Shown in pieces: positions 6,443 to 63,220 of a stretch of 64,000 bases of DNA. This stretch comes from Camelus ferus. Lineage: Eukaryota. The position numbers and the translations under genes are program-made. The stretch covers positions 66,714,001 through 66,778,000 of the forward strand of contig NC_045696.1 of assembly GCF_009834535.1 (NCBI RefSeq), given 5' to 3'. The notes beneath the pieces are model-generated. The model saw nothing but the letters and a program-made list of their open reading frames with translations. It had not been told where the DNA came from and did no database searches. How positions within the stretch are numbered: the stretch's first letter is position 1; each line of letters starts with the position of its first letter.

Positions 6443-6540
6443 GGGGGACAGTATAGCTCAGTGGTAGAGCACATACTTAGCACGCATGAGGTCTTGGGTT
6501 CAATCCCCAGACCTCCATTAAAAAAAAGGTTAAAAAAAAG
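6443..6540 (+). mobile_element. Vic-1-type tRNA-derived SINE (camelid)
   Basis: Pol III A box tagctcagtgg (6454-6464), B box gttcaatcc (6498-6506), body cttagcacgcatgaggtcttggg and an A-rich tail. Confidence 0.85.
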
Positions 6541-13491: not shown

Positions 13492-13812
<321 letters not shown>

Positions 13813-34372: not shown

Positions 34373-34447
34373 GATGGAGGTATTGGGGATTGAACCCAGG
34401 ACCTCATGCATGCTAAGCATTTGCTCTACCACTGAGCTACACCCTCT
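34344..34447 (-). mobile_element. Vic-1-type tRNA-derived SINE with long poly(A) tail
   Basis: Minus strand reads gagggtgtagctcagtggtagagcaaatgcttagcatgcatgaggtcctgggttcaatccccaatacctccatc(A)n. Confidence 0.9.
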
Positions 34448-38260: not shown

Positions 38261-38616
38261 CTTGTTTTCTTCTTTTTACCTGTAACTAATATATGCACAC
38301 ATTCTGAACAAAACTCCGCATTGATGCTTTATATCCTCTGTGTCTTTCAGAATAAAATACTTCCCACTTGAATTCATAGGTTCTTCACGTGAAGACAAAC
38401 GGCAGAGGGCAAAAGAATAATTCTTTTCTAATTGTTAAAATGTCTCTGGTTTTGGAATCAGGTGGAACAGAGAGCTAACTTCTTTTTTCTTTTCTTTCTT
38501 TCTTTCTTTTTTTTTTTTTTTTTTTAGGGAAACAGGTACTGTTATCTCAAACAAATGTTTTCAAGATCTACATTTTATGCAAATATACCTACTATGTAGT
38601 TAGTGTTTTCTTCCTT

Positions 38617-38618
38617 AA

Positions 38619-38674
<56 letters not shown>

Positions 38675-38675
38675 A

Positions 38676-38727
<52 letters not shown>

Positions 38728-38749
38728 AAAGAAGAAAGAAAAGAAAGAA
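38617..38749 (+). repeat. (GAAA)n tetranucleotide microsatellite, about 130 bp
   Basis: Directly visible, with a few interruptions. Confidence 0.98.
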
Positions 38750-41700
38750 TTTAGAGAAAAATGCTAACTTTGAGGTCAAATTAACCTTCTAGAGTGGTTT
38801 ATTTCTAAGGAGATAGGAAGCTGGAATTAGAGTTCAGTCCTAGATCTGTTTTGTCTATGTGGACAAATCAGTAAGTAGATCTTGAGTTGACTTCCCAGTC
38901 TATAAAATAGAGCACTAAAAAAAAAATGCCCTTAGATCACAGGGGTACTGTGAGTTCCATTATTTGCAAAGCACTTTGCATTCTTTGGGTGAGAGGTGTT
39001 GGGCTTGTTATGAAGACACTGCACTTACATAATCCTAAACATGCTCACAAATTGGAAAGGTAGTTTTCAAGCCAAAGGCACATTTTTTTTTTTTTCCACA
39101 CTTAGCGATGAACTTATTTGCATATTTGTCTGAGGCTCTTATTTGCTCCTGTTCATTCACCCTGGTTTCGTCTTGACGCCATCGCTGTCATCACTCCTGC
39201 TTTCTCCCACCACACTTAACTTTGCTTTATGTAGAACAAGCAAATGGACAGGAAACTAAATAAGGACACAGGGCTTACACTGAGTGGAAGCTCTCATTAT
39301 TTCCCGACCCTAGGGGCAGGGAGGTGGGAACAAAGCAAAGGGACCAGGAATGGACGGGGAAGGGCTTTAGGGAATCTAATCCCATTTACTATTTTCCAGT
39401 AGAGAATAAGGGGAGGCCCTAGTGCACCTCTGCCCTTGCGCTCTCTATCTCATTAGAAGTGTGTAAATTTGGGCAGGCAAAAATGACAGCTATGAAAGAG
39501 TAACAGACAAAACGGTCAAAGCCAAGACAGTAACAGGAGGGACCCTTCCTTCAAGGCTCACTCCTTCCTGGATTGAGAGCAGAGCATGGCTTTTTATCTG
39601 CTAGACGACTTTAGAGAGGTAGGTAAGTAAGTAACTGCATCTCTAAATGTGAATATTAATCACCTACGTGGCAGAATTCTTATATAAATCAGTTGCTGTG
39701 ATGTTAATCGCCTTCTGGAGCTCTTGGCTTGATGCTCAATAAACAGTAACTAGCAATTTCATGTCCACCACCTAAATTTTAGAGTTGGTTATCACTTGCC
39801 AACTCCTGACACCATAACACCACATTCAGGACAGTAAGCGTAACTGACTATACTGCCAGAGGCAAAATTTTAAGTCAAACATTATGTTTTATTAGAAAAA
39901 GATAGAAGAAGCAAATATTATTTTTATTCTACCCTTCCTTGCCTGGTCATTATTGTAACATTGAGTTTTAGCTGGTAAACTGCCTCCCAGCTCCAGCCAT
40001 TTGTACCTGAGTTGTACCAGAGCTCCCGTCCCTGAGTTCTCTACTCGGGGAAGGTGGTCCTGAGCAGCCTCCTTGGATTCGAGGCTTTGGCTCTAACAGC
40101 TGTCCATCTGACAGTCACTGGGGTTGATTATAAGAATAGTATAGCCCTCTAAGCCCCATGCAGAGAACACAAAGCTAACGTTCATGTTTTCCATTAGCCA
40201 GTCACTTAGTAAAACCCAGAAATGAGAATGATCATACCGTCTGCAGGTTCGTTTCTCCTAAATGAGAACATGATTGCTTTCATGGTACACCAAGTTCCAA
40301 ACCAAAAATTACAATGCAAGCCCTACAGATTATAAATTAATTTTACTTACTACTTATCAGCCAAATGCCTGCATATTTAATTATAGTGCTCCCATGATAG
40401 AAGAACAAAATTAGGAAGGGGGAGAGGGCTCAAAAAATGCTGATTAGGAAAGGACTTGCACCATTATTGCAAAATGAGCACCATGACCAGAAAACAGAGT
40501 CCTAAATACACCACCTAGGAGCCTAAAGACCCGGGGTCCTCATTTCACCCATGAGCTTCCGTGTCCTCATGCTACACCGGAAGATGAGACTAACACACTG
40601 AACTTGGAGTGTTACTGTGAAGCTCACATCACAGAAGTGAAAAATCACCTGTACATTATAAATGCACAAGTAAAACTATGACTTAAAAAAATAACTTAAG
40701 AAATACCCTCAAAGAGAACTGCAGAACTTTCTGCCTACTGAAACTATCCTTGGCGATAGATTAAGATTAAAGCCAATCAACTGGGTAGAAAATTAATAAT
40801 AAAGATAACTAATCACGTCAAGTAAAAATATTTAATAGGAATAGAAAGACCTCAGGAGCCAAGGAACCTCAAGCAGAAGATTTAAATCACTATCTCACGT
40901 CAAAATTACAAGGACTTTTCTTGTTGTTGTCAGAGATAGAACAAGCCTCTTCTCACCTAAGTAGACTCGGAATCCCTATCGGTTTTCATTTCAGAGGAAG
41001 TTGTCAGCATTGGCACTGGAAAGAGAAAGCCACACGGGCAACACAGAAAGCCAGGCTGCCCCTCTGAGTTAGCACTATGTGCCTGTCTCACCCAGAAAAA
41101 CCTGGTACAGGAACTTGCGCTGTTTCCCCCACTTCTCTAGTACTGTAGTAGGACAGTCGCACACAGTGATTTATATCTTACAGAGTTACACATGATTGTT
41201 TTGTGTTTCAGTTGCTCCAAACCTTACAAGTGATGTTCACTCCACTTTTACACATCCATTCCTTTATTCCAACAATATTTACTAAATGTGCACATGCTCA
41301 CTTACTCCTTCAAAGCCCAGAAAATCTTAATTTTTCTCTTGGGATACATATAAATTCAGTTCTTTTATTATAATTACAGATCTTCAATTGTCTTCCCAAT
41401 TATTATATAGTCTTTTGGCTGGGAAGAAAATATAAATTCTAGAGGGAGAACTACCTTATCCATCTTTCACACAAGCGGCAGGCATAACAAAACAAGAACA
41501 ATCTTGCATGCTTTGTAAAGAGAGATGGCACTTACACAAAAACAGGCAAATGAAAAACACATTTGAGATTAATAAATACATCACCGAGATCTGTGATAGA
41601 AACCCACTATTAAGAAAGGAAAAATGTTAGTGATTTCAGCTCCTGTCACTAAACTGGAAGTTTTTCACTCCAATAAAATTAACATCGACATCCAATTTCC

Positions 41701-42101
41701 AGATGGTTTCAGAATTTTTTTTTTTAATTTGATGAAATGAACTTTATCTTTAACCCTTGCCATGAAAGGGGGAGTTACAACAAATCAAATGGATTTAAAA
41801 AAAATTGTTTTGTTTTTTCAAACCCACAAATTATCTATCCGTGGTATCAGGAACTATGACAGACTGAAAAAAGGGTAGCTCTTAACTATAATTTTCAAAG
41901 GTCCAGTCTTATTCACTGGCCAGATTCTCTTTGTCAGATCTAAAATCTGAATTCCAGATGTGCTGAAGTGTCTTTGTGTCAACAATACTTTAATACTCTC
42001 TCATTCTATTCTAATCCCAGCAAGTGGCCACTAGCCTTTCCTTCCGAAGTCCAAGGAGATGGAGGTTGACTGTGTAGCTAATATTTAATCAGTAGTAATA
42101 C

Positions 42102-42152
42102 ATCCCAGATTGTGTACAGAGAGATTATTATACATCAGGTGAGATGTGCCTG
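42102..42152 (-). other. Putative orthologous site of primate MIR944; single arm only, not a hairpin
   Basis: Similar to the 5' arm and 3' flank of hsa-mir-944 as recalled from memory; position in TP63 intron 4 is compatible. Confidence 0.7.
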
Positions 42153-43574
42153 TGTAATGAGTACAAATTTATCCCAGAAAAATAGTTTACCTTGGTTGAA
42201 AAAACTTAAGGCTACATTTTGGTTGGCTAATGAAAGGATTAAAGGGGCAAATATTTGAAGAAAACTATAGAGATCATTGACAGTGAGTTTAGTTAAGAAA
42301 GGCAATGAACTAATTTTCAAAGAAGTTATTCCAAACATTGTCTAGTGATAACTTTAAAACAATACATGCAACAATATCCTTCTTTAGCTCTTCCATTCCA
42401 TCCCTTAGTATCTGGGTCAAATAATTAGGTGAATGAGAAGGGGAAGAGGACTCTCTAAAAATTAATGGTCGGATTCTAACGTATTTGTATGGATCCAGTT
42501 TTCCGAATGAATGCTTAAAGCTCTTAATTATATTCTATTTAGTACCAATTAGAGCACTCACTGTAGTTTACTTCTCAGAAACAGCATGTACCAGGCACTA
42601 AAGCAGGAAGAATGATTTAACTGATTTCCCAATTCCTCTTTTGAGATGCTTGGTTCTCTCAGTAGGTAATTTTCAAAGTCTCTTTCTTGGTCCAGTTCCT
42701 ATAGCTAGGTTTAGGAACACAGTGTCTGTTAAGAAAATTTTCAGCCTTTCTTAAAATAAAAGTAGTTTTCTTTTCTTTTTTTTTTTTTTTGTAAACAGTA
42801 AACATCTGTTGTAACAAATCCATCACTAACATTCAGCAAAAAGGAATGGAGAGATTTTATAATTCAATTCACTGAACTCAACTGAGGGCCAACCCTTGGT
42901 CAAAACACAAGTACATTTTTCTAGTTACTGACATTGTAAATTAGCATTGTTGTTTTTTTCACAGCATGCTTGCTTCTATCTTTTTCATTAGACCCAAAGC
43001 AAAGTGAAAGATTCTTCTGTTTTCCATGAGCTAGTGTTAGAGATATTATTTTTACCCAATAAAAAGCCAAAAGTGCTCATTCTTATATTTAGGACAAGAA
43101 GTAGGAAGATAGATTAAAGATTTAGCTCAATACTTTTTTTTTTTTAAAGATAAGGAAATTGTAGTCCAAAGCAGCAAAAGGATCTGGCCAAAGCCATCAA
43201 GTCAGTCAGTGGCTCCCTGGCTAGAGCTCCTCCTTCTTCCATCAATAAAATTTCTTCCCAGATACTTCCAATGCAAGGCAATACCAGAGGGAACAGAAAA
43301 TGCTTCTTTCTCTGGTCAACTACAAACATGTGGGTCCTCTCACACACAAAGCAGTAGGCTAAACAGCCAAGATGAATCCTAAGAGAAGAAAGTGAAAGCA
43401 TAACACCAAAAAGTCCCCAAACACTTGAGGAATATATCCTTTGACTGGTTCATGCCTGCAGTCCTGATAAGAAGCAGTTCCAAAACAACGGTGCAGGAAA
43501 TGCTACAATGTTAGGAGTCAAAATGGCCCCAAATGTGAGTGGGTTTCTGTCTCAGAAATACACACTGCAAATCC

Positions 43575-44430
43575 ACTCCAAAGCACCAACTCACCTTCAT
43601 CTCCCCTTGCTTTACCTTTTACCTGAATTATTGCAACAGCCTCCCAATCAGCCTCCCTGCCTCCAGTCCTCCCACCTCCATCCTACTGCCAGTTATCTCC
43701 CTCTGGTAGAGTATGATGTCATCCCCCTACTCAAAGCCCTTCCATGTCTCCTCAATGCCTGTAAGACTGAAGCCAACCTCTTAAGGATGATTCAGAGGCC
43801 CTGTCCTTCCAGCTCTGTGAACTTCTCTCCAGCCTCATTTTCTGCTCCTCTCCCATTCCTCCAAACACTGCGTGGTCCAGGTGTGTCAGATTCTTTCCTA
43901 CTTCCAGACTTACACAACACTCTTTTATCTCCATGCCCTTTTTTACCTGGATCCTCTACCTGGAATGTCCTTTCTCTTTGTCCCCCTTGCAAGACCCTGC
44001 TCCGCTTTGGAGAGCCAACTTTAAATGTCAAGTCCTTGGTGAAGCTGAACAAATCAGCCTGTTTTCCGTGCTGTATCACACTTTGTTCAGCAAGGATTAT
44101 TATCTGACAAATATTTGTTGAGACCCATTACATGTGCCAACACTAAGCTACAGAGATGAAAAGACAAAGCTACTGCCTCTGAGTTCGCAGGGTAATGGTG
44201 AGACAGACACTGTGATTCTGAATACATGTACAAAGTGTAATGAACATAAGAGAAGGAACTCCTGAGTGTGGTCTTTGTGTGTGTGTGGTGGGTGTGTAGG
44301 GGGTGCAGGTGAAGACAGATGGCAAGGGAAGGCTTCACTTACAATTAAGGCTTTCAGTGAGTTTTAAAGGCTGAGTAGGAGTCTGCCTGGCAGACAAGGG
44401 AAGGTGGTGGGTAGGGGGACATTCCAGACA
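43575..44430. mobile_element. Two L2 remnants in opposite orientation (plus strand about 43575-44045, minus strand about 44105-44430)
   Basis: cctgaattattgcaacagcctccc, ctcaaagcccttcca, cctctacctggaatgtcctttc; then acaaatatttgttgagaccc...gtgcca, ggcttcac, ggggacattccagacag. Confidence 0.75.
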
Positions 44431-46499: not shown

Positions 46500-46950
46500 A
46501 AAAATTGGACATGTTTGAACAGGCAATAAAACACAAACAAGTCTTGGCCCTATCTCATGCAGAATGGGTTGGTTACAGATGCTTTCCTGCAAGCTACATC
46601 TTGCCTGTTACAAGAACATTCATCTCCCAAGCACATCATTTCACCTACTTTGCCTGAAGCAAAACAAAGCACACACAAAAAGCATGGGATCTGTAAAAAT
46701 AGCACTGCTAACTCTTAAAGAAACGTGCACACTTATTCCATACCCTTACAGAGGAGAGCAACCAGACATCTGATTTCCAAAATACCACTTTCTGGCGATG
46801 GCTCAGTTTGCCTTTCCCCCTTGCAAGCCAAAGATGGGAGGGGAGTCTGACCTGTGTCTTCATTTTTCTTACCTGCAGAACTGAGGCTGGGCCAGCACTG
46901 ACTCACAAAGCTGGAGACATTAGCTCATGGCCATGATTCAGTCATGGGAA
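46500..46950. promoter_or_regulatory. Candidate enhancer with clustered p63/p53-family response elements and an AP-1 site
   Basis: GGACATGTTT-GAACAGGCAA (46507-26), AAACAAGTCT (46535-44), CTGCAAGCTA-CATCTTGCCT (46587-46606), TGACTCA (46899-46905). Motif-level evidence only. Confidence 0.45.
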
Positions 46951-47499
46951 TCTGAGAGGCAAGGGCCCCTCCTGTCCCTGGTGCTTCCAGGGGGAAGTCA
47001 GTCCCTGGAAGGGATGGCTTAGGACCTCGGCACTGATGTGACCATGTCTGTTGTCCAGCATGGGGAGAAAGGTGCAGTGCTGTCTGTGTGATAGCAGCCA
47101 CCCTACTGAGAAAATGACCGTCTGCAGAGGGAAGCCTGTGTACACAGTCAGTGAGAAGAACCTTACAGAAAGGTCCTTATCTCCCGCCACCAGCCCTTTC
47201 CATCAGTCCAGGAGAGAAGTGTGGGTTCTGGTCTCTAGATGACTTGGGTTTCTCCCCAGGGAGAGCAGAGAGGCAGAAGGCTCAAGTGTTCAGGAACTAA
47301 TAGGTCTTCAGCTTTTATTAGGAACTTTTGAAATAAGCTGGATAAGAATCGCCTCATTCAACCAACACCTTCAGCTTCGAGCTCAGATGAAAAAAAAAAA
47401 AAAATGCCAGTGTTCACCCTGCGAGACAGGAGCCGTTCCTGCTGCCCCCACCTCCAGGCAGGGGCGGCAGTTTGCTGGAGGACGGACTTCCGAGTTTAC

Positions 47500-47670
47500 A
47501 GACCTCTTTCACCTCATTATCTCATCTGATCCTCACAACAACCCTGGAGAGTAGGTGTCATTATCCTGGTTTGACTGATAAGATAACTGAGGCACCAGAG
47601 GGGTTAAGCGATCGGCAAAGGTCTCAGCTAGAAAATGGCGGCCTGCACTGACCACTTAGGGACAGCTCTC
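47500..47670 (-). mobile_element. MIR SINE
   Basis: ctcatctgatcctcacaacaaccctggagagtaggtgtcattatcc...aactgaggcaccagaggggttaag. Confidence 0.8.
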
Positions 47671-49369
47671 CTGGAGTAAGACAGTTCATCGTTCCAGCTC
47701 CCTCCCTGGCTCTCCATTCCGCCTCCCTGCTTTCCCACGTAGCCTCTGGAAGTAGTGACTGTCAGCAGCTGCCTCTGCCCTCTCTCATTTCTGCCCTTCC
47801 CACAGCCAGCGCACCGCATCGCAGAGCGAGCGCTCAGCCCCGCCATCCTGTGTCTGCCCTCCTGTGGCATTTTCCAAACTGCTTCCCTTCCTCCAGGTCC
47901 CCTCCAACCAACCTCCGTATATTACCAGTTGAATGGGTTTTATCTACAGTCCTGAGCATGATAATTCCTGTGCTCAGGAAGTATTCAGTGTCAGCACACT
48001 GCCGGTGGGATACAGCCCAAATGCCCTAACCGACGTAGGCCGGCCCCATGCCACCTTCTGCTCTTTCCTACCCACGGCCATCGCTTCAGGCGCAATGGCA
48101 GAGTCCCTGTCTCCAGGAGCCCAGAGCAGACTGGACTCTGTGTTCGTTTGTCCCTCAGCGGCTCCCACTGCCTGTCTGGGAAGCCTACTCTCTTCCCCAC
48201 TTAACCAGCCACCTGGCCAGCTGCTGTCCGCCTTTCTCTTTCCAGCCACATTAAGTCTTCTCTTCTGGATGCAAAGGAGTTTTAATTCAAAGAGCACTTC
48301 AGAGGCCACTTGGCTCATTCCGTCATCCAAAACCTGAGGCAAGGGTCTCCTTTCTGTTCTGACGCCCTCCAGGGGCTGCGCGCTGGCCACCACTGGAGGC
48401 AAGCGCATTCCAGCCCCACGGGACCCTGACCATTCCTCCTCCTGAGCTGGAATCTGCCATCCTGTGACTTCCCGTCTTCGGTGGTAATTGTGCCCTCTGG
48501 GGCCATCCGAACGAGGTAGGATGTGGCTGGTTTCAGAAAGTCTAGCAATAAAAAGGGGAGCTCTGTGTGACTGATTAAAAATACCACCCTTTGAAAAAAC
48601 GAACCAAACAACAGGTGAGGATACTTGGATGCACGCAATACATAGAACAGACACAAGACGTACGTATGTACATATATATGCACACACACATACACACATT
48701 TGATTGTAAGAGTCCTTCAGAATAGACATGATAGAAAACTGGAAAAACAATGTAAAGTGGGTAACAATTCTACAAATGATTGACAGAAAATGTAGATAGA
48801 AAAAAAAAAGAATATCACCCTTTCAGAGCATGGGTCCTCGTTCTTTATGGGTTGAAGTGGTAAAAATAAATAACCGCCTGGTGCTTTTGCCCAGAGCCAA
48901 TCACTTTATCTTAAAATTGTGCCCCTTAAATAGTTGTTTATGGTACTTTTACCTCAGAAATATTCATGGCAGTGTGCCCGAGTGTAACTCAAAGCCACCC
49001 GATAAATGTTACTCATCTTCCTGGAATTTTCACTCTAAACATTTAATGAGGAAAAGAAATATTTCTAGTGAAATGTATATTTATATTAAAATGAAAAGTT
49101 GAAATGTGTTTTACAGAAATTATATTTTTTCTACAGAACCCTTCAGATTTTACCCTCAGGATGTCCAAAGCAGGCATTCATTTTCCCCGGCTCCTAACTG
49201 GGGTAAAAGTTTTAAAGTACTGTTCCAATGTATCAATCGTGAAAGGCACCTGAAGCCAGAGTTACTCCACAGACCGGATTCCCTACTGCAGTGCCTGGCA
49301 GACCTGTGAGAAGGGCAGGTTTAGTCTAAATTCTAATCCTAAACTTACGATCCATCCTAATAAAAATCA

Positions 49370-61289: not shown

Positions 61290-62060
<771 letters not shown>

Positions 62061-63130: not shown

Positions 63131-63220
63131 AGGGTAGTATAGCTCAGAGGTAGAGCACATGCTTGGTGTGCTCAGGGTCCTGGATTCAATCCCCAGTGCC
63201 TCCGTTAAGGGGAAAAAGTA
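63131..63220 (+). mobile_element. Vic-1-type tRNA-derived SINE (more diverged copy) in the intron upstream of exon 4
   Basis: gtatagctcagaggtagagcacatgcttggtgtgctcagggtcctggattcaatccccagtgcctcc plus an A-rich tail. Confidence 0.85.

Follow-up and report, generated by a model that had tools for sequence, protein, structure and literature searches.

The TP63 intron and its one-armed site

The window analysed here, the whole 64,000-nt stretch of Camelus ferus DNA, includes exons of TP63 on the minus strand at both sides of the site of interest (Table 1), in agreement with the first-pass annotation, which had read this site on the TP63-sense strand. The upstream exon belongs to a minus-strand frame (61537-61965) matching residues 2-43 of the PDB chain 2rmn_A (“Tumor protein 63”, E 1.7e-20), and its translation ends in ...SATWT near 61645. 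The next exon lies in the minus-strand frame 13492-13812, which matches the Pfam family P53 (PF00870, E 7.6e-19) and residues 33-98 of 3qym_A (“Tumor protein 63”, E 5.2e-39; the p73 chains reach 5.8e-33), its translation starting with YSTELKK near 13725. The host intron measures roughly 48 kb (~47.9 kb), with the site ~19.5 kb below the upstream exon. A mir-944 gene is expected in the intron between the ...SATWT exon and the YSTELKK exon, and this is the intron in which the site is found; human MIR944 is located in TP63 intron 4 (Kim et al., 2015, NAR, PMC4551945).

Table 1. Coordinates of the features discussed in the text (positions in the window; minus is the TP63-sense strand).
Feature	Position	Strand	Remarks
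TP63 exon preceding the host intron	61645..61899 (approximate)	minus	human exon 4 as numbered by Kim et al.
Next TP63 exon, start of the DNA-binding domain	13537..13725 (approximate)	minus	Pfam and PDB matches
Site likely orthologous to p63-binding site #3 (human MIR944 promoter; candidate)	46572..46611	minus	4.4 kb upstream in TP63 sense
24-nt direct repeat, upstream copy	42155..42178	minus	partner 42086-42109; both copies begin with TCTGGGAT
Source segment, 47 bases	42107..42153	minus	reverse complement corresponds to human loop + 3' arm
Ortholog of the primate 5' arm	42117..42153	minus	kept forward in primates; 23/27 over the first 27 nt
miR-944-like 22-mer	42122..42143	plus (antisense to TP63)	orangutan 3 mismatches; human 18/22
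Loop bases, only inverted in primates	42107..42116	minus	10 bases; hairpin loop in primates
16 bases GGGATGTATTACTACT, missing in primates	42091..42106	minus	represented in both horse and dog
3' flank GATTAAAT, common with primates	42083..42090	minus	human 7/8, horse 8/8 (hand counts)

Read from 42152 to 42102, the minus strand gives CAGGCACATCTCACCTGATGTATAATAATCTCTCTGTACACAATCTGGGAT, identical to the letters quoted in the first-pass annotation. The latter had also stated that no complementary arm lies nearby, and both kinds of search carried out bear this out: inverted-repeat searches over 41600-42700 and 40000-44300 returned no pair touching 42102-42152, and with ≤3 mismatches allowed, the 31-mer 42118-42148 matched nothing but itself on either strand of the 64 kb. 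RNA folding of 42060-42200 (141 nt) gave -20.4 kcal/mol for the minus strand (z -0.15 vs. shuffles) and -26.4 kcal/mol for the plus strand (z -0.16), i.e., the stability of shuffled sequences and no pre-miRNA hairpin, as had been predicted. A sense-strand stem-loop of pre-miRNA size, as a mir-944 gene would possess, is absent from the folds and from the inverted-repeat searches alike. Using Rfam, no miRNA family was matched at E ≤10 in 41500-42800, a result to be read with the proviso that Rfam 15 may hold no mir-944 family; at gathering score, the whole window yielded no miRNA families and only three tRNA-like matches. Furthermore, the 261 nt around the site occur a single time in the 2.09-Gb assembly, so the locus is not a repeat family.

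Other elements of the window were also recorded. The three matches to tRNA models that exceeded the gathering score of Rfam (34375-34446, minus, 48.9 bits; 6454-6510, plus, 35.7 bits; 63133-63204, plus, 33 bits) are, in a mammalian intron, probably tRNA-derived repeats or pseudogenes. The Rfam mir-562 model produced 31 sub-threshold matches in the genome, spread over many contigs (best 53.5 bits vs. a cut-off of 100), and these look like a dispersed repeat resembling the model. At ~38479-38751 (+), a frame reading ...KERKKERKKERKK... corresponds to a purine-rich simple repeat of GAAA/GGAA type. Around the one-armed site, the two copies of the 24-nt direct repeat agree at 19/24 (79%) with a spacing of 69; this is the sole non-low-complexity pair with at least 19/24 at a spacing of 30-150 in the 64-kb window, ~1-2 per window being expected by chance. 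Between its two copies lie 45 nt comprising most of the 5'-arm ortholog, and only the position of the repeat is curious. A tandem duplication was considered for it and rejected, as the 45 nt ahead of the two copies are mutually unlike.

Comparison with the primate MIR944 precursor

The reference sequences were the rows of Suppl. Fig. S1A of Kim et al. (2015, PMC4551945), in which the MIR944 stem-loop and mature sequences are printed for five primates (human, chimp, orangutan, rhesus and marmoset); the non-primate rows with sequence are those of mouse, rat, horse and dog, and no letters are given for opossum and chicken. All comparisons with the primate, horse and dog rows are hand counts on the printed figure, made without an aligner or a four-point tool. 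The human precursor used in the first-pass annotation agrees with the human row, and the identities derived from it were reproduced on hand recount: 23/27 for the first 27 nt against the human 5' arm, 32/39 for plus-strand 42110-42148 compared with the human loop and 3' arm, and 18/22 for mature hsa-miR-944 against 42122-42143 (+). The terminal octamer TCTGGGAT calls for a correction, having been equated with the human 3' flank: it is present in human, but inside the annotated 88-nt precursor, of which it forms the final 8 nt, and not beyond it.

Searched against the window, the orangutan mature 22-mer gave a single match, at 42122-42143 (+) with 3 mismatches, while 0/100 shuffles were matched. 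The primate 22-mer matches the plus strand only, which is what the proposal of a mature sequence latent on the antisense strand had anticipated. The arrangement proper to a mir-944 gene, with the mature sequence on the TP63-sense strand and in the 3' arm, is absent from the window at ≤3 mismatches.

Positions 42162..42083 agree with the horse row at 63/80, ungapped (hand count), and the orthologous position with aligning flanks is indicated by synteny, by this identity and by the 7/8 agreement of GATTAAAT with human; as only ~6 nt of 5' and 8 nt of 3' human flank are printed, flank homology comes mainly from the horse and dog rows together with synteny. Both arms are found in 5/5 primate rows, and the second arm is missing in 4/4 non-primate rows (PMC4551945). 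As for the multi-mammal comparison that had been recommended, the rows covered are thus one-armed in mouse, rat, horse and dog and two-armed in human, chimp, orangutan, rhesus and marmoset. The stem-loop and mature sequence were described as “only conserved within primates” (Kim et al., 2015, PMC4551945).

Geometry and origin of the inverted fragment

The human 47 nt running from the loop start to ...TCTGG, which would be positions 39-85 of the human precursor, match the reverse complement of 42107-42153 at 37/47, ungapped (hand count). The loop is the informative part of this match, because the complementarity of the arms does not explain the orientation of the loop. The human loop 10-mer agrees with window positions 42107-42116 at 8/10 when inverted vs. 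1/10 when forward, and the corresponding hand counts are 9/10 vs. 2/10 for the horse row and 7/10 vs. 1/10 for the dog row; the human 5' half holds no forward copy of the loop bases. The published TSM criteria ask for an inverted fragment ≥15 nt long that accounts for ≥5 mismatches (Monttinen, Frilander and Loytynoja, 2023, PNAS, PMC10710096). Counted by hand, the locus shows an inverted fragment above that length (37/47), at least 5 mismatches explained by it, and a better agreement inverted than forward (loop 8/10 vs. 1/10). The rodent rows, too, have extra sequence at the place of 42091-42106.

When the points of a switch follow the order 3<1<2, the stretch 1-2 is inverted in place and the stretch 3-1 is added as an inverted repeat. 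Under the four-point template-switch model, which is said to come from Loytynoja and Goldman in 2017, the order 3<1<2≤4 gives the 5' side of the human allele in one step: 42107-42116 would be inverted in place and 42117-42153 copied backwards, with a length of 45-47 nt that agrees with the published 47. In the event that we envisage, a replication template switch in the common ancestor of monkeys and apes, synthesis would have left its template past the position corresponding to 42117, restarted on the complementary strand at the one corresponding to 42107, proceeded backwards to ~42151-42153 and returned downstream once a 45-47-nt inverted fragment was written. The loop, the 3' arm and the whole mature miR-944 would have been obtained in this one step. 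The exact switch points are those that we infer.

Two readings of the return are compatible with the rows. If return point 4 was at 42090, one event would have replaced 26 nt by 47, and the 16 bases 42091-42106 would have been lost in the switch itself; if the return was at ~42106, right after point 2, 14 of these bases would have been lost by a later deletion. As TCTGGGAT is matched in full (8/8) by the window, a return at or near the octamer is favoured, which would make the 14-nt downstream loss a separate deletion. The octamer is a weak anchor, because the window has two copies of it within 70 nt (42102-42109 and 42171-42178), because it is conserved at only 6/8 in horse and 4/8 in dog, and because its TCT(GG) in human may just as well be the reverse complement of the 5' (CC)AGA. 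The lengths add up: +47, -26 and a human 5' arm 2 nt shorter make +19, the difference between the human row (99) and the horse row (80).

After a scripted switch on the letters of the window, a 69-nt stretch with a fold of -12.3 kcal/mol became a hairpin of 90 nt at -69.5 kcal/mol, in which 38 base pairs enclose a loop of 10 nt. Any inverted copy gives a hairpin, so the scripted switch serves as an illustration that one step is sufficient. A small quasi-palindrome pre-exists in the unswitched minus strand, where ACATCTCA (42140-42147) can pair with TGGGATGT (42100-42107) through 8 pairs, one of them G-U; this pairing is seen in the fold of -12.3 kcal/mol and is not common to the horse and dog rows (4/8 each, hand count).

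The first-pass annotation had proposed an inverted copy made by a single template switch and inserted “exactly before TCTGGGAT”; the copy and the single switch are supported, whereas the plain 39-nt insertion is unlikely. In that geometry, the ancestral segment stays intact, a 39-nt inverted copy of 42110-42148 is placed before the octamer, and the product is a loop-less perfect palindrome which is trimmed later. It accommodates the 8/8 identity between 42102-42109 and the final octamer of the human precursor, as well as the 32/39 found for the inverted match, and its simulated product folds at -74.3 kcal/mol. Nonetheless, we hold it to be unlikely: it is unsatisfactory because losses of ~6 nt in the human 5' half and 14-16 nt downstream are left unexplained, so that an extra ~6-nt loss would have to remove exactly those bases that the loop carries in inverted form, and an additional 14-nt loss would be needed downstream. 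Besides, its anchor occurs twice in the window and is imperfect in horse (6/8) and dog (4/8), and the published fragment is 47 nt, not 39. Judged on the sequences compared, the human allele is better fitted by a four-point switch than by a plain insertion before TCTGGGAT.

The opposite direction of change, namely a hairpin ancestral to placentals whose 3' arm was deleted in the camel lineage, is very improbable. The one-armed state is common to mouse, rat, horse and dog (4/4 rows). Mouse and rat belong to one superorder, and horse and dog, both laurasiatherians, to another. A deletion would not flip the loop segment (8/10 inverted vs. 1/10 forward) either, and the window retains 16 nt that primates are missing. 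Slightly less probable still is a chance likeness or non-orthology, for instance an unrelated transposon-derived palindrome in primates; Mariner, MaLR and L2 elements are indeed recorded at ≤1 kb from the human gene (Dataset S1 of PMC10710096), but gene, intron and strand are all identical, the 22-mer match was found in 0/100 shuffles, the locus is single-copy in the genome, and the 63/80 identity is to a horse row assigned to MIR944 in the published alignment.

We therefore regard it as highly probable that 42083-42162 (minus) is the ancestral, unswitched MIR944 ortholog of a non-primate placental, the hairpin having originated from one switch in the common ancestor of monkeys and apes. In the Camelus ferus genome, the one-armed site is most likely inert intron. 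Both the one-armed pre-hairpin state and the single template-switch origin in primates, as put forward from the letters of the window, are supported, and they were already in print.

The upstream p63 site and the relation to known systems

The candidate ortholog of p63-binding site #3 contains a response-element-like core, AGGCAAGATGTAGCTTGCAG, at 46587-46606 (minus), with both CWWG cores intact. The human promoter primer 17-mer matches 46572-46588 (-) with 3 mismatches, a match that is weak alone, as 22/100 shuffles were also matched; in the adjoining sequence, 25/29 bases are identical to the mutagenesis primer that Kim et al. used for site #3, its two mutated cores being left aside (hand count). 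A GC-richer island (47000-48500, GC 0.51-0.58) lies, together with site #3, 4.4-6 kb upstream in TP63 sense. In human, the promoter is ~5 kb from the stem-loop, and site #3 is reported as widely conserved in vertebrates (PMC4551945). The human promoter reverse, promoter forward and nested RACE primers had no matches in the window at ≤3 mismatches, which is to be expected in a diverged intron and is uninformative. The p53-family response-element consensus at ≤2 mismatches gave 2 matches vs. 3.3 expected, neither of them near the locus; candidate site #3, with its 5 flank mismatches, is not one of the two.

We advance only tentatively, and from resemblance at the sequence level, that the p63-responsive intronic promoter of pri-MIR944, described in human keratinocytes, may be older than the hairpin. 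If this were true, the switch would have put a ready hairpin into a p63-driven transcription unit, bringing a new miRNA into the p63 network at one step, and the camel would make an intronic transcript without a miRNA.

The template-switch origin of MIR944 and its absence outside primates are both published, and the finding is real, ordinary and already known. hsa-mir-944 appears in a table of TSM-generated miRNA loci with a TSM length of 47 (Monttinen, Frilander and Loytynoja, 2023, PNAS, PMC10710096, Dataset S1), in a row giving 3:189829922-189830009, mature 54-75 and its use in the heatmap. The derived allele, of which the window would hold the parent, is accordingly classed as a TSM product in that dataset. 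The main text of PMC10710096 has 0 occurrences of “944”, mir-944 being named in the supplementary table only. A full-text literature search on miR-944 and template switching gave one unrelated paper, the published link being confined to that supplementary table.

What the window contributes is a clean “before” view of a published de novo microRNA birth, in which one replication error would have provided the loop, the 3' arm and the entire mature miR-944, the non-primate sequence carrying the latter in antisense only. It is also of relevance for annotation, since the conserved 5' arm could mislead homology pipelines into calling a MIR944 ortholog, and none is warranted in the camel genome; a comparable annotation error has been described for hsa-mir-4731 (Monttinen et al., PMC10710096). 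No new mechanism emerges, and no new question apart from the promoter-first idea.

Compared with the systems already described, the entry of Monttinen et al. for hsa-mir-944 concerns the same locus, the same mechanism and the same length of 47, according to its dataset row, and the window adds a further outgroup with the reconstructed parent state (PMC10710096). The host intron is identical to that of MIR944 in Kim et al. (2015), whose figure already has horse, dog, mouse and rat as one-armed; there, the non-primate state is given as non-conservation only, with no origin mechanism, and the downstream sequence of the non-primates is forced into alignment with the human 3' arm. As described by the same authors, MIR944 has its own deltaNp63-driven promoter; the p63 site #3 of this promoter is probably represented in the window by 46572-46611. 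Lastly, the present case is no different in kind from those covered by the four-point model and by the quasi-palindrome model of Ripley, as the latter is described in PMC10710096, in both of which one event accounts for an inverted repeat and for an in-place inversion; here only the unswitched allele is present.
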